From Gammaproteobacteria bacterium (lineage in GTDB: Bacteria > Pseudomonadota > Gammaproteobacteria > CAISUE01), in assembly GCA_021156105.1 (NCBI GenBank), contig JAJNBD010000002.1, positions 198,416 through 262,415 on the forward strand: a stretch of DNA of 64,000 nt. Reading direction: 5' to 3'. Position 1 is the first letter of the stretch; the number at the start of each line of letters is the position of its first letter. The notes below the pieces were generated by a model. That model ran no database searches, was not told where the DNA came from, and was given only the letters and a program-made list of their open reading frames with translations. This document shows positions 2,932 to 26,098 of the stretch, piece by piece. The position numbers and the translations under genes are program-made.

Positions 2932-4509
2932 TTAGGAATCTAGGCTAAACACGACCATCTCTTTATGCCCTAATTTTTCTCGCAAAATAAGTTTTAAATT
3001 TTGTTTTTGCTCATTTGGCAGATCATCAAATGTTTTTGCTTCTGTAATATATAAAGTTTTTGGATTATTGAGTGCCTCAGTAAAATCAATAGTCACGGGT
3101 TGTCGTAAGCTTGATAAAAATTCGATTGGCTCGGCATCGGGGTGGACTTTATAAAAAGTAACCGTGCTATTGGCAGGTAAATTTTGCATGACATGATTAA
3201 CAAAAGGCCTCACACGATTCAAGCTAATTTCAATGGGTTTTACCACAAAAATAATGGCGGCTAAAAAACTTGCCAAGCCAATGCCAATAATTTTTTTGGG
3301 ATTTCGGCTGGCGTATTCCATTGGGTGATGAAATAAAACATAGAGGCTTGCTAGCGCAAAAAGAATTAATGTGCAAAAAGCAGAAACATAATGTGCATTA
3401 ACCTCTAAACTTTTTAAGTGTATAACCACAATGGTTGCAATACAAAGCAAAATCAAAATAAAAGGCAGTGCTAAACAAATGATAGAAAAAATTTGACGAA
3501 TAATTTTTGCGGTTTGCGTATTCATTAACCATAGAGAAGCGCCAAGGAGTGAGATGGCTGGCATCATTGGCAGCGCGTAGCGAATCTTATGTGAGCCTGC
3601 AAGATAAATGCATAGAAGGGTAAGTGTGGTGAATATAGCAAAAGTATTAATTAAGGGGCGAGGAATAATGTTTAAAGGCTGTTTTGTATAAAATCCTAAA
3701 ACAATACCGATAACCGCAAGTTCAAAGGCAATTGCAAAGCTGGTCAGTGCATCTTGTAACACAGCAAGCAAAGAAAAACTTTTTGGATGCAAAACAGGGT
3801 TAAAAATCTGTACTTTGAAAACTTCGATAGCGAATAAAGTGTTACTTTGCAACTTTGCTGCGGCTAAAAGAAAAATACATAATGCTAGAAAAAATAATCC
3901 CGCCTGAAGGCTAAACTGCCTTAACATGAGCCAATTTCGGTGAGCTGTATAAAACGATAGGCAAGTTAATGCAGGTAAAACAAATCCTGCTGGCCCATCA
4001 ATAAAGAAGCCGAAAAGTAATGGTAAGAATAACCAAGTTTTTGCAGATTGACGTATTAATAGATAGAGCGCCCAAGTACAAGCAAGCAAGATAAAAGGCT
4101 CAGGGGTTAAGCTGCGAGCGGCATCAAAAAATTCATAAGTAAAAAGCGATAAGAGAACAGCAATACGACCCCATTCACGGTTGAATGGTAAAGCAATCTT
4201 GTAAATTAAAACTAAGGTCAGTGAAGACGCTAAAGCGCCAGCAAAGATAGCAGAAAAGGTCGTAAACTTGCCGAAAGCTAAAGCAAACAAACTATTAAGA
4301 AGCGCAAGTCCACTGACAGTCGCGGGATAAGGCGTGCCATAAGGTGTGGGGAAAAAGCTGAAGCCATTTCTGAGTATTTCTTGCGCAAAAACAGCGCTAT
4401 GTGTTTCAAAACCAACAAGCTCTCGCCCAAATATTCCATAGAGGAATAATGCTAGGCTGCCGAAAAAAATGATCCAAGGTTCAAGTTTACGTAAAATATC
4501 CATTAGCAT
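2932..4509 (-). CDS. Polytopic GT-C glycosyltransferase, ArnT/PMT_2 (GT83/GT39)-like
   Basis: 525 aa, more than 10 predicted TM helices; N-terminal loop ETHSAVFAQEIL...FPTPYGTPY resembles the ArnT ETRYAE..EM...PY.EKPP motif. Confidence 0.55.
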   Translation of the reverse strand: MLMDILRKLEPWIIFFGSLALFLYGIFGRELVGFETHSAVFAQEILRNGFSFFPTPYGTPYPATVSGLALLNSLFALAFGKFTTFSAIFAGALASSLTLVLIYKIALPFNREWGRIAVLLSLFTYEFFDAARSLTPEPFILLACTWALYLLIRQSAKTWLFLPLLFGFFIDGPAGFVLPALTCLSFYTAHRNWLMLRQFSLQAGLFFLALCIFLLAAAKLQSNTLFAIEVFKVQIFNPVLHPKSFSLLAVLQDALTSFAIAFELAVIGIVLGFYTKQPLNIIPRPLINTFAIFTTLTLLCIYLAGSHKIRYALPMMPAISLLGASLWLMNTQTAKIIRQIFSIICLALPFILILLCIATIVVIHLKSLEVNAHYVSAFCTLILFALASLYVLFHHPMEYASRNPKKIIGIGLASFLAAIIFVVKPIEISLNRVRPFVNHVMQNLPANSTVTFYKVHPDAEPIEFLSSLRQPVTIDFTEALNNPKTLYITEAKTFDDLPNEQKQNLKLILREKLGHKEMVVFSLDS

Positions 4510-4611: not shown

Positions 4612-6066
4612 ATGACGACGACTCGCTGGTTTTATATTTTTTTAATTATTCATATTTTATGTTGGACATTGGCACCAAGCTTGGTGCGCCATACGCTGCC
4701 AATTGATTCTAATGAGTCAACGATTTGGGCAAATCACTTGCAGTGGGGCTATGATCGGGATCCTTACTTTTATGCGTTTTGTGCAAAACTTGCTCTAGCG
4801 TTGAGCCAGCATGCCATGTGGGGAATGTACTTTTTTGGGCAGTGTATGGTTGGTGTTGCCTTATGGGCGATTTGGCGTTTGGCTAGCCAAATGTTGCCTG
4901 CTTGGCATGCCTTGGTGGCTGTCATGATGTTAGAGTTAGTGCAATATTACAATATTGCAGCGATAGATTTTGATGATAATGTTTTACAAATGACAATGTG
5001 GTCATTAACTTTATTAAGTTTTTATCAGGCATTAAGGTTTAATAAAGTATTACACTGGATATTGGCTGGCTTATGCGCGGGTTTAATGTTAATGACGCGT
5101 TATTATGCTGGCATTTTCTTGCTATCCCTATTAATTTTTCTAATCGTAGATAGTCAAAGGCGGCAAATATTTTTACAGCGTCATTTTTATGTGGGTTTGT
5201 TGTTTTTAATCCTTCCTAGTTTGCCACATTTATTTTGGCTTATGCAGCATCAATGGTTAACGGTGCATTATGTATTTGGTCGTATGGATGAGCAATCTAT
5301 GTGGGTGAGCCATATTGTGCAACCCCTGCATTTTATTTGGGCGCAATTGTTAGTATTTTTACCTGCTATCGTATTGTTTATGTCTCTTTGCATTGGTAAA
5401 GATCAAGGGAGAATTGTGGAAAGTAAGCAATTTAACTTGACGCACTTTGACCGCGCTTTTCTTTTTTATCTAGGCATTTTGCCTTTGGTCATAACGATTA
5501 GCCTTTCTTTATTAACTGGCTTTACTTTGCGTGTGCTATGGGGAATGTCGTTGTTATCCCTGGCGGGTATCATGTGGACAGCTTGGGTGCGAGTAGACCT
5601 TACCAAAAAGAATTTAGCTGTTTTTATTTCTTTAATTTTTAGTCTAATGTTGCTCATGGTAGCAGGATATGTCATTTCATTAACAAAATCAGGTGCGCAT
5701 TCAAGCGCTAATTTTCCTGCTGAAAAAATTGCACAACAGTTGACCACAACGTGGCGCCAGCATTACCATCAGCCCTTGCGTTATGTGGTCGGTGCGAGAG
5801 AATTAGCGGGAAACATTGCTTTTTTTTCACCAGATCACCCGACGGTCTATATTGATGCGGACCTTAATGTAAGCACCTGGATAAAGCCCGAAGCCGTAAA
5901 ACAGGCAGGGGCATTATTTGTTTGGGATATGAAAGATGGTATGCCTGCGGAATGGAAACAGCGTTTTCCTAATCTTATCCTACTTGCGCCCCAAGATTAC
6001 TATTCTTTGCAAAATCCAAGCGTTAAAGTCATGACGGTCGGTATGGCTTTACTGCCACCAGCATGA
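4612..6066 (+). CDS. Polytopic membrane protein, probable GT-C glycosyltransferase paralog
   Basis: 484 aa multi-TM, C-terminal soluble domain; arranged divergently from 2932-4509; weaker ArnT-like loop (WGYDRDPYFY). Confidence 0.4.
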   Translation: MTTTRWFYIFLIIHILCWTLAPSLVRHTLPIDSNESTIWANHLQWGYDRDPYFYAFCAKLALALSQHAMWGMYFFGQCMVGVALWAIWRLASQMLPAWHALVAVMMLELVQYYNIAAIDFDDNVLQMTMWSLTLLSFYQALRFNKVLHWILAGLCAGLMLMTRYYAGIFLLSLLIFLIVDSQRRQIFLQRHFYVGLLFLILPSLPHLFWLMQHQWLTVHYVFGRMDEQSMWVSHIVQPLHFIWAQLLVFLPAIVLFMSLCIGKDQGRIVESKQFNLTHFDRAFLFYLGILPLVITISLSLLTGFTLRVLWGMSLLSLAGIMWTAWVRVDLTKKNLAVFISLIFSLMLLMVAGYVISLTKSGAHSSANFPAEKIAQQLTTTWRQHYHQPLRYVVGARELAGNIAFFSPDHPTVYIDADLNVSTWIKPEAVKQAGALFVWDMKDGMPAEWKQRFPNLILLAPQDYYSLQNPSVKVMTVGMALLPPA

Positions 6067-19196: not shown

Positions 19197-19264
19197 TTAA
19201 TATCTCCATAATAAAAATGAATCATTAATTATAGCGTAAAACCCTTGCTGCTGCAGTGAAAGTT

Positions 19265-19792
19265 TTAGGGTATGTTAAGCGTTTGAGCAACTGCATTAAC
19301 AACAGCGGATACTCTTATGCAAGTTTGAATGGCTTCATGTGAAACTTGGTGCTGTACTAAAGATTTCACATGAGAGTCCATGCACATGCCGCAGCCATTA
19401 ATCGCGGAAACAGCTAAGGCATATAATTCAAAATCAACTTTATCAATGCCGGGATTTGCCATGCCATTCATGCGTAATTTAGCAGGCATGCTAGCAAAAC
19501 TTTTATCACTGGCTAAGTGAATAAAGCGATAATAAATATTGTTCATGGCCATTAAACTTGTGGCAATTTTAATTCCTTGAATATCGGTTTCTGTTAGCAT
19601 TGCATTGGCGTAATCAAATATAGCGTTAATAAGCTCTGCTTGTTTTGTGCTATAAGCGCTGGCCAGCGCGATACCTGCGATTTGCTTTGCGCTTAAGCCA
19701 TCGATATCTTGCTGATTTAATAAGCTGCTTAGATTTAATTTTGTATCTTTAGCAAAATCAGGTAGTTTATTTTTTAATGTATCAAAGTTCAT
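19265..19792 (-). CDS. ahpD: Alkylhydroperoxidase AhpD-family protein
   Basis: 175 aa; NGCGMCMDSH matches the AhpD C-x-x-C-x-x-S-H active site; directly downstream of ahpC. Confidence 0.8.
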   Translation of the reverse strand: MNFDTLKNKLPDFAKDTKLNLSSLLNQQDIDGLSAKQIAGIALASAYSTKQAELINAIFDYANAMLTETDIQGIKIATSLMAMNNIYYRFIHLASDKSFASMPAKLRMNGMANPGIDKVDFELYALAVSAINGCGMCMDSHVKSLVQHQVSHEAIQTCIRVSAVVNAVAQTLNIP

Positions 19793-19801
19793 AGTAGCTC
19801 C

Positions 19802-20359
19802 TTAAGCATTATTTTCAAGGGTTTTCACATCAAGGGTTTGCTGTCCTTTTTGCCAGTTGCAAGGGCAAAGCTCATCAGTCTGTAAAGCATCTAGAACGCG
19901 CAAGACTTCATTAGGATTACGGCCCACGTTTAAATCAGTGACCATGACAAAACGAATGACGCCTTCAGGGTCAATAATTAACGTTGCGCGTTGAGCAACA
20001 CCTTCTTGTGGATCTAAGATGCCCAAAGCGCTAGAAAGTTCACGCTTAATATCTGAAAGCATTGGGAATGGTAAATCATTTAAATCTTGGTGGTGCTTTC
20101 GCCATGCGTGATGAACGAATTCTGAGTCAGTGCTTAAGCCTAAAATTTGAGCATCTCGGTCTAAGAAATCCGGATTTAATTTAGCAAAGGCTGTGATTTC
20201 AGTTGGGCAAACAAAAGTGAAATCTTTTGGCCAAGAAAATAATACAAGCCATTTGCCTGAAAAAGTCTGGTTGTTGATATTTACAATGCCTTTTTCAATA
20301 TCATTGCTTACAACCGCCTTTAACTCAAATTTTGGTAAAGCGTTACCAATGGTTAACAT
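19802..20359 (-). CDS. ahpC: Peroxiredoxin (AhpC/Prx1 type)
   Basis: 185 aa; peroxidatic FTFVCPTE motif and resolving Cys near C-terminus (CPCNW). Confidence 0.9.
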   Translation of the reverse strand: MLTIGNALPKFELKAVVSNDIEKGIVNINNQTFSGKWLVLFSWPKDFTFVCPTEITAFAKLNPDFLDRDAQILGLSTDSEFVHHAWRKHHQDLNDLPFPMLSDIKRELSSALGILDPQEGVAQRATLIIDPEGVIRFVMVTDLNVGRNPNEVLRVLDALQTDELCPCNWQKGQQTLDVKTLENNA

Positions 20360-20410
20360 AATTTTTCTCCAAGTTGTTTAAATTGGGTTCATTGTAGAAT
20401 GCTGGTATCG

Positions 20411-20456
20411 ATAAGTAAAATATATTTTTTATATCCTAATGATATATTTTACTTAT
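20411..20456. promoter_or_regulatory. Perfect 15-bp inverted repeat, 52-97 bp upstream of the ahpC start; candidate operator
   Basis: ATAAGTAAAATATAT N16 ATATATTTTACTTAT. Confidence 0.4.
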
Positions 20457-20907
20457 AATAAAAATATTGAGCGGTTTGCGAATTATGATTATGGAGAGGT
20501 AAGTTATAAACCTATGAGTATTAAAAGGCGTTGGCTTTTAATTATATAGTGCCTACTAATCTTGGGGTGGCTCATCGCTTTTAAAGTATTTTTTAGAAAG
20601 ATATGGTTCACATCTGTTGATCAGAATATTTCTATTAAAAAATTAGGTTGTGTGCCATATATTAGCTTATCTCAAATAGAAGCCTCTCACAAAGCTGTTG
20701 CTATTAATGCGCCACTTAAGATCGGTTTCCAGTAAAGTTTTTACTGGGATAGCTTCATGTTTAGTAAACGCTGAGGCCAGCCCAAAATGACCTCATTAAT
20801 AAAATGTTAACCATAAATATCATATACTATAACGCTTTAAACATTTCCCAAAATATGTATTACCATATAACATAAACAATAATAAACTAATCCTATTAGG
20901 AAAATTT

Positions 20908-22191
20908 ATGAATCAACAACAAAAAGAATGCCTCATGTTTTTCATGTTCCAATGCAACTGGCGTCCTTGGAGTGCAGCAACGATTGATAGGCTATCCGGG
21001 CTTTTTTTTGTAACCAACACAGGCTTGCTCCGGGAAATTGCTTTAGCTGAGAGATGTTTTTCCAAAGACCTCCCAACTCCATGGGGCCAAACGCTCCCTC
21101 GGTCAATAAAAGAATTATTAGAAAAGCATAATTTAGATGTCTTAGAAGCAACAAGACCAAAGAAGTTTCTTATTTCGCAAGCAGATGTCTTACTTAGTGA
21201 AAAGCAAAAAGTTATTTTACAAGGGATGCCTATTAGCTTAGCCCAACCCAAATATCAAGAATTACATTTAATTCTTAGCAAATTTTGCAAAGTCAAGCAG
21301 CACGTCATCACAGACTTTTTAATAGCGCGTTTAACGCAGACGAAAGACAATGAAGGCCAAGCGCATTCTAGCGATGCCCCTGATCTATACAAACATCTAG
21401 CTAATGCTATTCATCAATTATCTGATGGAAATAGTTTATTGGAAAAAATAACCTGGGCGCGCCTCAAAGAATTGAGGAGTTCATCGCTACATGCTTCAAT
21501 CCTTAAAAAAGTTCAAGCCGAAGCTGCAAAATATCCAGCCGAAAAAAATTCAAATAGCTACCCCATTAATGAATTCGCCATAAATCTTATCAACAGGCTA
21601 AAAAAATTTTACCAAGCTATGCTTGATACGATTTTGCAGAAACTATTTGCACCCCAGCAGTTAACATCCTCTTTAGCTGAAAGTTATGCTTGTCTTCGTT
21701 ACTCTGTCGCAGCGACAGAAGAATTGGGGCTTGGTAATCAATTACGCGCCTACGCCATTTACGGCATGGCAATTTGCTTAAGCAGAGTTAACTTGCTTGG
21801 GCCTGCCATAGCGCTCTTCGAAATCTTAATAGTAGATGAATCCTTAGACGCTGCTCTAAGAAAGAACATTAAAGATTTTTCTGATGAATTAAAAAAATCT
21901 GAAGTCACAGTTACTTATCAACGAGCGGCCCCTTTTTATGGAGCGCCATGGCTACCCTTATCTGCCCCAAGAGACAGTTCAACGTTTGGTGACACTTCTG
22001 ATCAAAGGATAGCCCCCGCCAAAGGATCAGCGTTTTCTCGTGTGCATGCAGGTTCAGTATTTCAGCCGGCAACAGGCCCATTATGTGGTTCTAAAAGAAC
22101 CCACGACGATGAACCTGGTGACTCGTCTGCAGCTAAACGCCAAGAACCGCCTCGTGATGCCTTCAGTATTGCAAGCCTAATGAATCTCTGA
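20908..22191 (+). CDS. Hypothetical protein (effector candidate)
   Basis: 427 aa; no recognisable domain; acidic, Pro-rich C-terminal tail ending ...FSIASLMNL. Confidence 0.5.
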   Translation: MNQQQKECLMFFMFQCNWRPWSAATIDRLSGLFFVTNTGLLREIALAERCFSKDLPTPWGQTLPRSIKELLEKHNLDVLEATRPKKFLISQADVLLSEKQKVILQGMPISLAQPKYQELHLILSKFCKVKQHVITDFLIARLTQTKDNEGQAHSSDAPDLYKHLANAIHQLSDGNSLLEKITWARLKELRSSSLHASILKKVQAEAAKYPAEKNSNSYPINEFAINLINRLKKFYQAMLDTILQKLFAPQQLTSSLAESYACLRYSVAATEELGLGNQLRAYAIYGMAICLSRVNLLGPAIALFEILIVDESLDAALRKNIKDFSDELKKSEVTVTYQRAAPFYGAPWLPLSAPRDSSTFGDTSDQRIAPAKGSAFSRVHAGSVFQPATGPLCGSKRTHDDEPGDSSAAKRQEPPRDAFSIASLMNL

Positions 22192-22203
22192 TCCCGGAGT
22201 GCC

Positions 22204-23394
22204 TTATCTTAGGGCTTGGCAAGTATTGGTCCGATTGCATCGCATTACTAGGGAAATTTTCACCATTAACAGCAGGCCTACGGATCCTAAAGCGAAATAA
22301 AAAACTCCTAATAAAAATTGATTTTGGTGAGGAATAGAATTTAACAGAAAATTTATTCCTGTGGAGATAGCAATTTGGCTGGCGCCATAAACTGCGCCGG
22401 CGGTGCCAATTTTTTCATGTACACTTGAAAATGCTACCGCTAAGGCATTAGGAAATAAAATTCCACAAGCTGTCATATTCACAAAAATAAGCGGGATCAA
22501 GAAAAAAAGTCGTGTTCCAAATAAAGTATATGTTAGCATCAGCAAAATGCCGCCTATAGCCAAAAGGATTACGCCACTACTCACTAATTTTTCAGGACTT
22601 ATTTCCTTCACCATTCTGCCACTTAAAAAAGCACCAAAAGAAAGGCCCAATGCTGCAATTAATAAGATTTCGCCATTTTGCATCGCTGATAACTTTAAGG
22701 TATTTTGAATAATAAAAGGCATGATGTTGGCGCATAGAATAATCGCCGAGAAGCTAAATCCAGCTATAGTTACATAACACATAAATAAGCGATGACTTAA
22801 AATTTTTCTATAGTGTAAAAAAGTTTCTCGTAAACTAAATGCGCTTTTCTTTTCAGCTAATGTTTCTTGAAAAACACTCAACAGTAAAATGAATAGCATA
22901 ACACCATAAAGCAACATAAAAACAAAACTTGCTCTAAAGCCAAAATACTGTTGCAAGAGCCCTCCTACAAACGGTGCAACTGCTGGTGTTGCCGAAATAA
23001 AAAAAGCTATCTGCGAAGATCGCTGCGCCAATAATGGCCCATGATAAAGATCTCGCAATATCACACGCGATAAAGATAACCCGCCCCCTACGCCTATACC
23101 TTGAATAATTCGCCCAAGACAAATTCCTTCAAATGACGCAGAAAAAAGACAAATTGCAGACCCTAACACAAAAAACGCTGTGCCTAGCATTAATAAAGGT
23201 TTTCGCCCATAGCTATCAGATAGCGGTCCATAAAACAATTGTGAAATCGCAAATCCCAATAAGAATAAACTAATGGTTAATTGCGTATGTGCCACAGATT
23301 GACCAAAAAAGTTTGCAATCGCTGGTAACGATGGTGCGAATAAATCGGTTCCCATTAAACTCATCACTGCCAATAAAATCACTACATAGAACAT
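22204..23394 (-). CDS. MFS efflux transporter (Bcr/CflA-like)
   Basis: 12 TM; probable start at MFYVVILLAV; divergent LysR neighbour. Confidence 0.7.
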   Translation of the reverse strand: MFYVVILLAVMSLMGTDLFAPSLPAIANFFGQSVAHTQLTISLFLLGFAISQLFYGPLSDSYGRKPLLMLGTAFFVLGSAICLFSASFEGICLGRIIQGIGVGGGLSLSRVILRDLYHGPLLAQRSSQIAFFISATPAVAPFVGGLLQQYFGFRASFVFMLLYGVMLFILLLSVFQETLAEKKSAFSLRETFLHYRKILSHRLFMCYVTIAGFSFSAIILCANIMPFIIQNTLKLSAMQNGEILLIAALGLSFGAFLSGRMVKEISPEKLVSSGVILLAIGGILLMLTYTLFGTRLFFLIPLIFVNMTACGILFPNALAVAFSSVHEKIGTAGAVYGASQIAISTGINFLLNSIPHQNQFLLGVFYFALGSVGLLLMVKISLVMRCNRTNTCQALR

Positions 23395-23505
23395 AAAATT
23401 TGTCCTCTTTATTATTTCCATAAAAATTATGGCATTGCTATACGTATAATACAAATCTATAGAAGTTATACTTAAAATAAGTTAAACTAATACAAAGGGG
23501 GTGGT

Positions 23506-24429
23506 ATGGATCTTTATCGAATTAATTTAAATTTACTGATCGCACTTGATCAACTGTTAACCGAAAAAAGCGTTACCAAAGCCGCGGAAAAACTTTCTAT
23601 CACACAAGCTGCGATGAGCAACAATCTGCAACAGTTAAGAGAGCTTTTTTCGGATGCACTATTAGTGCGTGAAAAGCATCACATGCTATTAACACCTTAT
23701 GCGCGCGAATTACACCCTAAGCTTCAACAAATCATTGAAGAAGTAAGAACATTAATTGTCAGTGGGCAACGTTTCTGTCCAGAAAAATCTGAGCGCGTTT
23801 TTAAAATTGGCGTGCCGGATTATATGGCGCCGCTCATCATGCCAAAGCTTTTAACTTATCTACATAAACGCGCCCCAGGTATTAAAATTGTATTGACTTC
23901 TATCCAGTATTTAGGAGAGTCTGAGCCCTTTGAAAAAGGTGATTATGATTTAGCAATTGGAAAATTATTCACGCACTCACCCTCTGTACAAACAACGCTT
24001 TTACTTAAAGATTCGTTAGTATGTATTTTGAATCCCAAACATACTTTAGCGAACAAGAAAAAACTTTCCTTAGAAGATTATATTCAAGCGGAACATATTG
24101 CAGTTTGCGCTGATAATCTACCTTTAACTGTCTCAATTGTTGAACAAGCTTTAGCGCAGTTAGGTATTGCTAGAAATGTTAAATTTTCACTGCCTTTTAT
24201 TATGCCTATATTCAAATTAATTGAAAAATCTACCACACTGCTAGGAACCGTGACCAAATCTATTGCAAATTTATATCGAAATGATAAACAATTTTTGATT
24301 AAGTCCTTACCTTTTTCAGTGCCAGAAGTAGAATTTTATCTTGCTTGGCACCAGCGATCTAACAATGATTTGGGACATCGCTGGTTGCGAGAGCTTATTC
24401 TTCAAACGGTGCTCCCTGAAACAAAATAA
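23506..24429 (+). CDS. LysR-family transcriptional regulator
   Basis: N-terminal HTH (LNLLIALDQLLTEKSVTKAAEKLSITQAAMSNNLQQLR) plus substrate-binding domain; divergent from the MFS gene. Confidence 0.85.
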   Translation: MDLYRINLNLLIALDQLLTEKSVTKAAEKLSITQAAMSNNLQQLRELFSDALLVREKHHMLLTPYARELHPKLQQIIEEVRTLIVSGQRFCPEKSERVFKIGVPDYMAPLIMPKLLTYLHKRAPGIKIVLTSIQYLGESEPFEKGDYDLAIGKLFTHSPSVQTTLLLKDSLVCILNPKHTLANKKKLSLEDYIQAEHIAVCADNLPLTVSIVEQALAQLGIARNVKFSLPFIMPIFKLIEKSTTLLGTVTKSIANLYRNDKQFLIKSLPFSVPEVEFYLAWHQRSNNDLGHRWLRELILQTVLPETK

Positions 24430-24606
24430 AAAAACATCTTACGTATGGCCTAATTTTGGCGTTAAAGCCTCTATACTAAATTCAAAAAGGGAATAGGGTA
24501 GAGCTAAATTTCAGAGTTACTATCTTATTTGAAATGACTGCCATGAGCCGACCTGGTTTTAGTAGGCGCTGAATTTGATAGGCTTAAAGATCAAAGGAGG
24601 TGTTAA

Positions 24607-24705
24607 ATGGCTTACAAAGCCACAAAAGAATTTAAACAAGAGGCAACCCGCCTTGCGTTTGTCCAAATAGCGATAAATTTTAAAAAGGGCACGTTCGCAT
24701 TTTAG
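24607..24705 (+). pseudogene. IS3-family transposase OrfA N-terminal stump (32 codons)
   Basis: Perfect SD (aaaggaggtgttaaATG), then MAYKATKEFKQEATRLA resembling the IS3 OrfA N-terminus; stop after 32 codons. Confidence 0.3.
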
Positions 24706-24752
24706 AATTGCGCACTTTACTAAAAATGATCGTCGATCATTTTTAGTAAAGC

Positions 24753-24930
24753 GGCGGAGAGAGAGGGGTGTGACTCGGCGCATCCTGCGCCTCGGGCGTT
24801 GCCCGCGCTGCGCGCGTCCAAATCGGCAATCCTGCCGCTTTGTCGAACCGATTGTTTTAGGATCGAGGGTTCGATGAAATAGCTGCTGCAGTTTATAAAA
24901 AAAGGGCCTTATGGGCCCCTTTTTTATAAA
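24753..24930. repeat. 180-bp tandem repeat unit A. Contains a copy of the tRNA-Ser 3' acceptor end (ggcggagagagaggg), a GC-rich segment, an inverted T-arm fragment and a terminator hairpin.
   Basis: About 98% identical to unit B (4 mismatches); period exactly 180 bp. Confidence 0.85.
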
Positions 24931-24932
24931 CT

Positions 24933-25110
24933 GGCGGAGAGAGAGGGATGTGACTCGGCGCATCCTGCGCCTCGGGCGTTGCCCGCGCTTCGCGCGTCCA
25001 AATCGGCAATCCTGCCGATTTGTCGAACCGATTGTTTTAGGATCGAGGGTTCGACGAAATAGCTGCTGCAGTTTATAAAAAAAGGGCCTTATGGGCCCCT
25101 TTTTTATAAA
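24933..25110. repeat. 180-bp tandem repeat unit B; abuts the genuine tRNA-Ser 3' end
   Basis: Direct comparison with unit A; the 17-nt tRNA 3' terminus occurs three times at 180-bp spacing (24753, 24933, 25113). Confidence 0.85.
25077..25105 (-). terminator. Bidirectional rho-independent terminator of tRNA-Ser (duplicate copy at 24897-24925)
   Basis: A7-gggcc-ttatg-ggccc-T6, 7 nt downstream of the tRNA 3' end. Confidence 0.7.
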
Positions 25111-25111
25111 C

Positions 25112-25204
25112 TGGCGGAGAGAGAGGGATTCGAACCCTCGATACGGGGGATTCCCGTATACACGAGTTCCAGTCGTGCTCCTTCAACCACTCGGACATCT
25201 CTCC
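25112..25204 (-). tRNA. tRNA-Ser (anticodon GGA)
   Basis: Manual fold: 7-bp acceptor GGAGAGA/TCTCTCC, anticodon stem CACGA/TCGTG with loop CTGGAAC, long variable arm, T-arm GAGGG-TTCGAAT-CCCTC, discriminator G plus CCA. Confidence 0.9.
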
Positions 25205-25273
25205 GCAACTACACTGTATGGCACAGAATAACATCTGGGCCTTCAACCATTATTCGCCGCATCCTGCGGCTCA
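25192..25273. repeat. 82-bp direct repeat copy 1 (tRNA-Ser 5' 13 nt plus upstream leader/promoter)
   Basis: Identical to 25337-25418; includes the hairpin GCCGCATCCTGCGGC. Confidence 0.8.
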
Positions 25274-25336
25274 CCCTTCGCTACGCTCAGGGCCGTTTGC
25301 TTTGCAAACGTTCAAAATCGCTCCTGGCGATTTTGG

Positions 25337-25418
25337 CGGACATCTCTCCGCAACTACACTGTATGGCACAGAATAACATCTGGGCCTTCAACCATTATTC
25401 GCCGCATCCTGCGGCTCA
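25337..25418. repeat. 82-bp direct repeat copy 2 (orphan tRNA 5' stump plus leader)
   Basis: Identical to 25192-25273. Confidence 0.8.
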
Positions 25419-25549
25419 ATTTTTGCTTTCTGCGATTTGCATGAATATGTCATGCTTTAATCTGAACGCGTAAGAGTACTGGGAATTTGCTTGCTTGTCA
25501 ATGCTAATTCGCTTAGAATGGGTCTTTCTTAATAATTTTAGAGGTTTGA

Positions 25550-25771: not shown

Positions 25772-25795
25772 AACAAGCGACTTAATAATAAAAAA

Positions 25796-25818
25796 CCCGC
25801 CAGATGGCGGGTTTTTTT
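25796..25818. terminator. Bidirectional terminator between infA and rpmA
   Basis: A7-cccgcc-agat-ggcggg-T7. Confidence 0.75.
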
Positions 25819-25834
25819 ATATCTTAAACAGCGA

Positions 25835-26098
25835 TTAAGCAACAACTTCTTCAATGCTAACGGTTTGACGAACTGGTTTGCCTTTTAAAGCAAATTTAAC
25901 CACGCCATCCACTAAAGCAAATAAAGTGTGGTCTTTACCTATGCCCACATTTTTGCCAGCGCGATATTTAGTACCACGTTGACGAACAAGAATGTTGCCA
26001 GCAAGTACTGCTTCATCACCAAACTTTTTAATGCCTAAGCGTTTTGACTGCGAATCGCGGCCGTTTTTCGTACTACCACCGGCTTTCTTATGTGCCAT
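25835..26098 (-). CDS. rpmA: 50S ribosomal protein L27
   Basis: 87 aa, conserved L27 N-terminus [16 protein letters not shown]. Confidence 0.95.

Follow-up and report, generated by a model that had tools for sequence, protein, structure and literature searches.

Partial copies of a tRNA-Ser(GGA) gene carrying a structured RNA-like module form a probable RtT-type repeat array in an uncultured gammaproteobacterium

For integrases whose crossover lies in the T-loop, the classic block of identity is the part of the tRNA gene between that loop and the CCA end, and repeated tRNA 3′ ends beside a tRNA gene therefore raise the question of whether they are the scars of integration or the parts of some other element. 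This question arises at the tRNA-Ser(GGA) gene of a Gammaproteobacteria bacterium (GTDB lineage CAISUE01; assembly GCA_021156105.1, contig JAJNBD010000002.1), which lies in the 64,000-nucleotide stretch analyzed here (hereafter “the window,” whose own numbering we use throughout). An earlier note, made from the letters alone, had read the repeats around this gene as the footprint of repeated site-specific integration and excision or of tandem amplification. We find that partial copies of the functional tRNA-Ser(GGA) gene lie on either side of it, each carrying a module that sits in T-loop context downstream of the gene and in D-loop context upstream of it, and we consider the locus to be probably an RtT-type tRNA-linked repeat array lying on the tRNA’s own strand. 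Repeats of this type were first seen beside the tyrosine tRNA genes of Escherichia coli, where they have been known for about four decades without an established function.

The anatomy downstream of the gene can be read directly. The intact tRNA occupies 25112–25204 on the minus strand (called by ARAGORN and by the Rfam tRNA model at 57.2 bits), and its 18-nt 3′ end, ATCCCTCTCTCTCCGCCA (25112–25129), recurs without mismatch at 24932–24949 and with two mismatches at 24752–24769, each copy running from the T-loop to CCA. These three copies, whose 180-bp spacing had already been described, are the only ones in the 64-kb window (chance expectation, 0.01 matches). Tandem Repeats Finder reports a 180-bp period over 24740–25129 (2.2 copies, 96% matches). 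Two full units, laid out like the E. coli rtT unit, lie on the minus strand: unit 1 at 24932–25111 and unit 2 at 24752–24931, which differ by five mismatches in register. Read on the tRNA strand, each unit consists of a terminator hairpin (T), a hairpin (hp0) ending in GGTTCGA, the module, and CATCCCTCTCTCTCCGCCA, i.e., the tRNA sequence from T-loop to CCA. Terminator T follows the tRNA at 25069–25113 (minus strand; inverted repeats with 20-nt arms, 95% complementary) and is bidirectional, its A-run pairing with its T-run; a terminator scan returns GGGCC..GGCCC followed by the T-run, and an identical second copy lies at 24889–24933. Hairpin hp0 (GTCGAACC...GGTTCGAC; 25019–25058 in unit 1, with the unit-2 copy at 24839–24878) is built from tRNA sequence on both sides, its 5′ arm being a 13-nt antisense copy of the T-arm and its 3′ arm a pseudo T-stem with half a T-loop. 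Specifically, the T-arm at 25130–25142 has perfect 13-nt inverted copies at 24862–24874 and 25042–25054, one per full unit, and these, along with the hairpin GCGCATCCTGCGC and the terminator, are indeed present in both full units, as the earlier note had it.

What fills the GC-rich cores of the downstream units, and also the space between two copies of the tRNA leader upstream, is one module of about 75 nt with four hairpins, read on the tRNA strand. A covariance model (R1) built from 18 modules, from the window and from related copies, recovers 29 copies with 28 distinct sequences; in the window it places the unit-1 module at 24951–25022 (70.6 bits, E = 1e-14), the unit-2 module at 24771–24842 (63.9 bits) and an AT-adapted subtype upstream of the tRNA at 25250–25335 (66.6 bits), all on the minus strand. 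In unit 1 the order is hpA (AAATCGGCA GGAT TGCCGATTT), GGAC, hpB (GCGC GAA GCGC), hpX (GGGC AAC GCCC), GAG, hpC (GCGCA GGA TGCGC), and CGAGTCA; in the upstream copy it is AAAATCGC CAGGA GCGATTTT, GAAC, GTTTGC AAA GCAAAC, CCCT..AGGG, GAG, CCGCA GGA TGCGG, and CGAATAA. Hairpin hpB differs in length from copy to copy and often has a core of the GCGAAGC type, in which there is tandem G·A. The shared hairpin order and the compensatory changes in the stems identify the upstream and downstream cores as diverged copies of one structured module, a homology that the earlier note had missed. The downstream modules are preceded by GGTTCGA and followed by CATCCCTC, which is a T-loop context (CGGTTCGA, module, CATCCCTC).

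Upstream of the gene, the module interrupts a different loop. Directly 5′ of it lies the pseudo-tRNA 5′ fragment GGAGAGATGTCCG (25337–25349, minus strand) and directly 3′ the tRNA D-loop remnant TGGTTGAAGG (25240–25249, minus strand; second copy at 25385–25394); as these are the two halves of the tRNA D-arm region, the upstream module interrupts a partial copy of the tRNA at its D-loop. The D-loop piece CCTTCAACCA occurs at 25180, within the tRNA, and again at 25240 and 25385, so the leader holds an extra piece of the D-loop that had also gone unnoticed. The duplicated leader itself, reported earlier as including the first 13 nt of the tRNA and lying 145 bp away, holds up as a 91-nt direct repeat (hpC, D-loop remnant, leader, and the 13 nt of the tRNA 5′ end) with an outer copy at 25337–25427 (minus strand) and a proximal copy at 25192–25282, 96% identical at a spacing of 145. 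At the outer end of this array (25395–25455, minus strand), a truncated or decayed module keeps hpC intact while the remainder is degenerate (R1, 24.4 bits, E = 0.002). All four modules of the window thus lie on the minus strand, like the tRNA, and within 270 bp of it.

The stems of the module covary. In the 28 distinct copies, 93.9% of cells are paired (vs. 77.8% in column shuffles), both-sided changes occur at 16 of the 20 base pairs—a count that none of 500 shuffles attained—and the covariation score of 0.416 drops to at most 0.071 once the pairing partners are slid by 1–3 columns. On the tRNA-sense strand, G-U pairs outnumber A-C pairs by 21 to 6, an excess that favors RNA-level constraint on that strand. 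Thermodynamic folding cannot tell the strands apart, because the hairpins are symmetrical.

Comparison with E. coli K-12 suggests a place for the module among known elements. Model R1 finds the three rtT repeats of the tyrT-tyrV-rttR region, in register and on the tRNA strand (19 bits, E = 5e-4), and also matches the tyrT-tyrV spacer. The E. coli repeats (178 bp × 3.1) stand directly after tyrV, and every unit consists of the last (3′) third of tRNA-Tyr, interrupted by an insert of 73 nt (…CTTCGACCAAGGTTCGA, insert, ATCCTTCCCCCACCACCA), the T-loop being split as AAGGTTCGA–CTCGAG…GAGTA–ATCCTTCC; in each unit the 3′ end also occurs inverted, as GGGGAAGGAT. In both the window and the E. coli locus, a tRNA gene is followed immediately, on its own strand, by tandem repeats with a period near 180 bp (180 × 2.2 vs. 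178 × 3.1). The repeat units end in the tRNA 3′ sequence from T-loop to CCA; within them a pseudo T-arm, GGTTCGA, gives way to an insert of several hairpins, after which comes ATCC…; and every unit contains some of the tRNA 3′ region in inverted form. The two loci differ in the host tRNA (Ser-GGA here, Tyr in E. coli) and in the sequences of hpA and hpC, with GGA loops in the window where E. coli has a GCA loop (GCGC GCA GCGC); moreover, only the window units each hold a full intrinsic terminator, and only the window has an extra D-loop-type copy upstream of the tRNA.

The Rfam families tell a compatible story, at scores below their gathering thresholds. The whole length of the RtT model (RF00391) aligns to a module that follows a tRNA-Ser in another genome (locus L013; 35.4 bits vs. 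a gathering score of 45), its consensus reading …AAGGUUCGA, hairpins, GCCCGAAGGGC GAG, hairpin, GAGUA AUCCuuCcCccaCCACCA, with AAUCC…CCACCA as the 3′ part. AaHKsRNA22 (RF02902) aligns over its full length to the upstream module of the window (25239–25346, minus strand; 30.6 bits, under the gathering score of 39.8), and the consensus of this Aggregatibacter RNA has the module’s own order: hpA, GAAC, hpB, hpX, GAG, hpC, CGAGUA. A second Aggregatibacter RNA, AaHKsRNA82 (RF02900), resembles terminator T, hp0 and the start of the module, though weakly (24.8 bits vs. a gathering score of 51.4); both RNAs come from organisms other than the host of the window. RtT RNAs are released from tRNA operon transcripts and occur as discrete RNAs in E. 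coli and Actinobacillus; in the latter, RtT RNAs upstream of tRNA-Asn and tRNA-Lys have been detected by Northern blotting, and these Pasteurellaceae RNAs (Arrc20/21), expressed from positions upstream of tRNA genes, are among the nearest known counterparts of the array (PMC4986893). The RtT structure is itself supported by covariation and includes a tandem GA motif (PMC7657543), while the function of rttR has been described as unknown, with a possible link to the stringent response (bioRxiv 10.1101/2024.07.17.603846).

How widely does the module occur, and where? A search pattern made of the hpA 3′ strand, a GRAC linker and hpC, for which chance matches are roughly estimated at far below one, and which required CGCAGGATGCG and thus biased the sample toward GGA loops, matched nine loci in species-representative genomes and 13 metagenome loci. 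The nine belong to Woeseiaceae, Steroidobacteraceae, Lysobacterales, Oceanospirillales, Treponema and other spirochaetes, and one unclassified bacterium, and seven of them have a tRNA gene on the same strand within about 200 bp. Across all 22 loci (Gammaproteobacteria, Spirochaetes, and unclassified metagenome contigs), the module is on the tRNA strand in every case where there is a tRNA close by. Eight matches in viral contigs, obtained with a looser pattern that dropped the GAG…CGA flanks of hpC, were judged to be chance and set aside: none had hpA or a tRNA context, and all were coding-like and GC-rich.

The module often interrupts a partial tRNA copy, and where it does its placement is precise. 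T-loop junctions (TTCGA–module–ATCC) occur in partial copies of tRNA-Glu and tRNA-Ser and, at L015 and L023, in a tRNA-Ser-like fragment downstream of tRNA-Gln; D-loop junctions in tRNA-Ser copies follow GGTTGA, GGTTTA or GGCTTA; and anticodon-loop junctions take the forms TTGGA–…–AA and CTTG–…–AA. An A precedes the insertion point in 25 of the 26 tabulated junctions, mostly as …GA. An intact copy of the same tRNA always stands alongside the interrupted one, which usually has no 3′ acceptor strand. Deleting the module in silico restores a tRNA-Glu (L016, L018) or a tRNA-Ser(TGA) (L013) that ARAGORN can call, where it made no call before. Several modules may share one pseudo-tRNA: at L028 (minus strand, about 3140–3440 of the reverse complement), a pseudo-tRNA-Ser(GGA) has modules of three different subtypes in its D, anticodon, and T loops, with another T-loop junction fragment further upstream, and at L020 the D and T loops are both occupied, the T-loop variant having GCA and GAA in place of the GGA loops. 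Copy number also changes within these arrays, as L022 (874–1131) has two interrupted tRNA-Glu copies with a 180-bp period before the intact gene and its relatives L018 and L027 have one.

Other arrangements accompany these. Intergenic copies away from tRNAs are found at L014, L021, L025, L026, L030–L032 and L033. At four of these (L014 6405–6500, L021, L025, and L026), the left flank is TTGGCGCA and the right an inverted hpA copy, AAATCGCTCCCGGCGATTT, so that the copies have terminal inverted repeats. Long arrays of concatenated module-like units occur at L030 (78–157, 4022–4101, 4145–4219) and L032, where the GAATCA end of one unit abuts the CAAA… start of the next; the third L030 copy (4145–4219), which has no GGA loops, was found by model R1 only. 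An autonomous element between two of the L030 modules was considered and rejected, the interval holding only a PCMT methyltransferase and a DEAD/ResIII helicase. A further variant, at the spirochaete-type or unclassified loci L011, L012 and L017, runs from tRNA and terminator through an imperfect inverted tRNA 3′ end (…GGATTTGAACC), hpC and about 50 nt to a direct tRNA 3′ end and a duplicated terminator, and could form a long stem mimicking the acceptor and T arms.

For the array in the window, we infer a simple history. Beyond the outermost 3′-end copy lies a perfect 18-bp palindrome (T′; 24715–24751, arms 100% complementary, strand not set), as the earlier note had recorded; its flanks resemble those of T (TTTA.TAAAAA ... 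TTTTTA.TAAA), and it is probably an older, outer terminator. From an ancestral arrangement of tRNA, T, unit and T′, one unequal crossover between copies of the tRNA 3′ end would double the unit. A single crossover predicts the order T, unit, T, unit, T′, which matches the observed order exactly. The same process, starting from the repeated 5′ end and leader, would account for the 145-bp period upstream. By analogy with E. coli rtT and Actinobacillus RtT, the modules are most likely co-transcribed with the tRNA—the upstream ones in its 5′ leader, the downstream ones through terminator read-through—and tRNA processing would most likely release them as small structured RNAs. A sequence on the tRNA strand at 25473–25501, TTGACA-N17-TACTCT (TTGACA-N17-TAACCT in the relative L033 described below), would, if used, give the tRNA precursor a 5′ leader of about 258 nt that includes the upstream modules. 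We rejected it as an informative promoter candidate: it overlaps the likely divergent infA promoter TTGCTT-N17-TAGAAT, which makes its conservation uninformative, and the scan tool gives no call.

The closest usable relative, L033 (GCA_040960315.1; 87% L21 identity), has infA beside tRNA-Ser(GGA) and lends itself to comparison. It carries an hp0-like hairpin, TTCGAACCC gagaaga GGGTTCGAC, after the terminator, and, elsewhere in its genome, an intergenic module of the AT-adapted subtype, from which it follows that the module family is resident in the lineage. It also has, at 6001–6034, a 24-nt tandem duplication (caaagttgtaGGAGAGATGTCCGA / caaatttgcaGGAGAGATGTCCGA) holding the first 14 nt of tRNA-Ser, whose junction (CCGA–CAAA) resembles the left junction of the module. 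Three further genomes (L036, L038, L040; 72–78% L21 identity) were discarded for the locus comparison, as the rpmA-infA-tRNA-Ser synteny is lost. A metagenome contig from JGI (L001/L041) is identical to the window, and two short-read contigs from Logan (L002, L042), which come from this organism too, are broken off within the repeats and are uninformative on copy number.

Several points weigh against an RtT-type array. L033, the sole usable relative, has no module at its tRNA-Ser(GGA) locus. RF00391 gives no match on 24550–25480 of the window even at E ≤ 10 (gathering score 45), so that homology to RtT and AaHKsRNA22 is suggested by a chain of models and a common architecture, the direct scores being sub-threshold. 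The folding energy of the downstream units is ordinary relative to shuffles (z = −1.2 and +0.2). A strong terminator separates the tRNA from the downstream units, and the expression of the modules is proposed by analogy with rtT, not from this organism. Finally, the crossover scheme starts from an existing first unit, whose origin lies outside it, and the first duplicate of the 3′ end could stem from an old integrase event.

A bolder proposal, which we hold only tentatively and regard as somewhat doubtful, is that the module is mobile and recognizes its target by structure. Across Gammaproteobacteria and Spirochaetes, it would enter copies of tRNA genes at their single-stranded loops (D, anticodon, and T), behind an A that is typically part of …GA, precisely, in one orientation and without target duplication, with only those hits that fall in redundant or partial copies surviving. 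Were this so, the tyrT/rtT repeats and the locus studied here would be fossils of loop-specific insertion. In addition, the pieces of tRNA may provide anchoring stretches of conserved homology by which the module passes from one species to another. Short structured inserts in sense orientation, placed precisely in D, anticodon, and T loops, recall the non-canonical tRNA introns of archaea, a likeness in manner of working only; unlike these, the junctions show no bulge-helix-bulge by eye and the hosts mostly have no 3′ acceptor strand. A spliced tRNA intron was rejected on these grounds and because an intact copy always lies beside the interrupted one: splicing is neither needed nor indicated.

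A related reading grants the module its identity and denies it a function. Here it would be a selfish miniature element, akin to repetitive extragenic palindromes (REP), to bacterial interspersed mosaic elements (BIME) or to miniature inverted-repeat transposable elements (MITE), with no RNA function, entering the hairpin loops of tRNA copies that the cell can spare, and the repeated tRNA ends would be neutral targets where insertions survive. We think this unlikely, although much of it is compatible with an RtT-type array, from which it differs on function and not on identity. The precise, one-way insertions free of target duplication, the A before nearly all junctions, the multiple modules per pseudo-tRNA (L028, L020), and the intergenic copies away from tRNAs are all in its favor, as is the report that dispersed rtT-like elements of enterobacteria are BIME members (PMC2965389). 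So is base composition: the downstream modules have 67–69% GC in a genome of 39.5%, whereas the AT-adapted upstream copy and the L033 copy have 53–55%, which suggests that the downstream modules are a more recent arrival. Short GC-rich hairpins in a fixed order and dispersed intergenic copies in some genomes are indeed REP/BIME-like. The module, however, is tied to tRNA copies and to the tRNA strand, and it has four different hairpins instead of inverted REP pairs; in the neighborhoods examined, no transposase or REP-associated tyrosine transposase (RAYT) was seen beside any copy. The G-U excess and the strict association with the tRNA strand are consistent with constraint at the RNA level, and discrete RtT RNAs accumulate in E. 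coli and Actinobacillus (PMC4986893). A miniature element of the IS200/IS605 type was rejected separately: the hpA and hpC stems are dissimilar, contrary to the ends of such elements, and no TnpA was seen. Left flanks vary (TCGA, TTGA, TTTA, CTTA, TGGA, CTGA, GCGA, GCCA-type) and have only the final A in common, i.e., there is no fixed 4–5-nt target.

The integrase reading with which the locus was first explained fares worse, and we judge it distinctly improbable. It holds that the repeats are attachment-site (att) footprints of repeated integration and excision, or of tandem accretion, at the tRNA-Ser 3′ end, and that the block of LysR, major facilitator superfamily (MFS) and 427-aa protein genes nearby is decayed cargo. 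Direct repeats of a tRNA 3′ end that span T-loop to CCA, next to a variable gene block, are what the window shares with tRNA-targeting integrative elements and their remnants: from tRNA-Ser to a conserved glyoxalase gene (19197–24500), the window has CMD, AhpC, the 427-aa protein (which has no Pfam family), MFS and LysR, and L033 has an AbiEi/AbiEii toxin-antitoxin pair. Given the evolutionary distance to L033, this variable flank is weak evidence of an island. In a Treponema sp. metagenome-assembled genome (L019, 2897–4268), moreover, a tyrosine integrase (Phage_integrase and Arm-DNA-bind_5) and an AAA_25 protein lie beside the tRNA 3′ fragment CAAATCCAGTATCGTCCA, with the integrase about 190 bp from this fragment, directly after which comes a module with hpC tandemly duplicated. 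Relative to the fragment, however, that module lies toward the chromosome and away from the integrase.

In the window itself, the parts of an integrative element are missing. No integrase is encoded in 18.7–29 kb, in agreement with the earlier note; the three core copies found in the 64 kb all lie within 380 bp; and no distal att copy marks where the variable block ends. Here and at 10 other loci, the module divides the T-loop (TTCGA … ATCC) without duplication of the 7-nt overlap, and insertion of the module by a tyrosine recombinase was rejected on the same observation, as the overlap (loop) sequence is undoubled at the junctions. Between the cores lies a conserved, RNA-like structured module that is also present at many tRNAs without integrases, at E. 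coli tyrT, in the other two loops (D and anticodon), and on the upstream side of tRNAs. The architecture thus recurs without island boundaries—at other tRNA loci in other bacteria, and not at this locus in relatives—which points to a structural or regulatory RNA element and counts against att sites. Of the earlier proposal, then, tandem amplification on repeated tRNA ends stands and the att footprint finds no support, the core of the units being the conserved module; similarly, the LysR/MFS block does differ from its counterpart in L033, but there is no tRNA-end copy at its far side to make it cargo.

A last idea, that the modules act as sponge RNAs like CsrB or RsmZ, sequestering a CsrA-type regulator with GGA loops (CAGGAUG, the repeat motif of E. 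coli CsrB) and coupling this to tRNA transcription, is weak and very improbable: in most copies, the three modules of the window among them, hpC is GCAGGAUGC and the hpA loop is CAGGA, CGGGA or AGGA, and there are weak sub-threshold RsmY and PrrB_RsmZ matches, but the pattern demanded CGCAGGATGCG and so biased the sample, members found by the model have no GGA loops (the L020 T-loop copy, L030 4145–4219, E. coli rtT), and there are only two GGA hairpins per module.

The remaining features of the region are minor. Beyond T′, a possible decayed third unit at 24600–24714 (minus strand) has a 22-nt match at 77%; its local alignment (z = 3.9) was equaled by the best of 300 shuffles, and the R1 scan gives no match there. 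It overlaps the 32-codon open reading frame (24607–24705, plus strand) whose strong Shine-Dalgarno sequence the earlier note had picked out: the frame exists, but its proposed identity as an IS3 OrfA remnant finds no Pfam match at E ≤ 1, a search with little power at 32 aa, and the region may, on this weak support, be a decayed repeat unit. A 134-aa reading frame annotated by JGI across the repeat units (24559–24963, minus strand) shows no credible match to any family, and we take it to be most likely spurious. The genes between 18.7 and 29 kb encode glyoxalase, CMD, AhpC, the 427-aa protein, MFS, LysR, infA, L27, L21, glyoxalase, SIMPL, and DAHP synthase. Between infA and rpmA, a bidirectional terminator (25784–25865) scores 50 bits with Rfam STnc370 (gathering score 54), which probably reflects a resemblance between terminators only.

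The feature is real and non-random, and the precise placement of the module in D, anticodon, and T loops across distant bacteria is the most interesting residue for the whole family. Where copies of tRNA ends and GC-rich inserts lie beside a tRNA gene, they are not automatically integration scars, and reading this locus as an RtT-type array would remove its apparent genomic-island or att signal. That reading would also bring into the RtT-type family an uncultured gammaproteobacterium that is rich in AT, several more lineages of the same class, and spirochaetes. One description—an intact gene with, next to it, a partial tRNA copy that holds a structured module in one of its loops—unifies these cases, and it makes both the origin of the repeats (loop-specific insertion vs. 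duplication) and an rtT-like RNA function directly testable.

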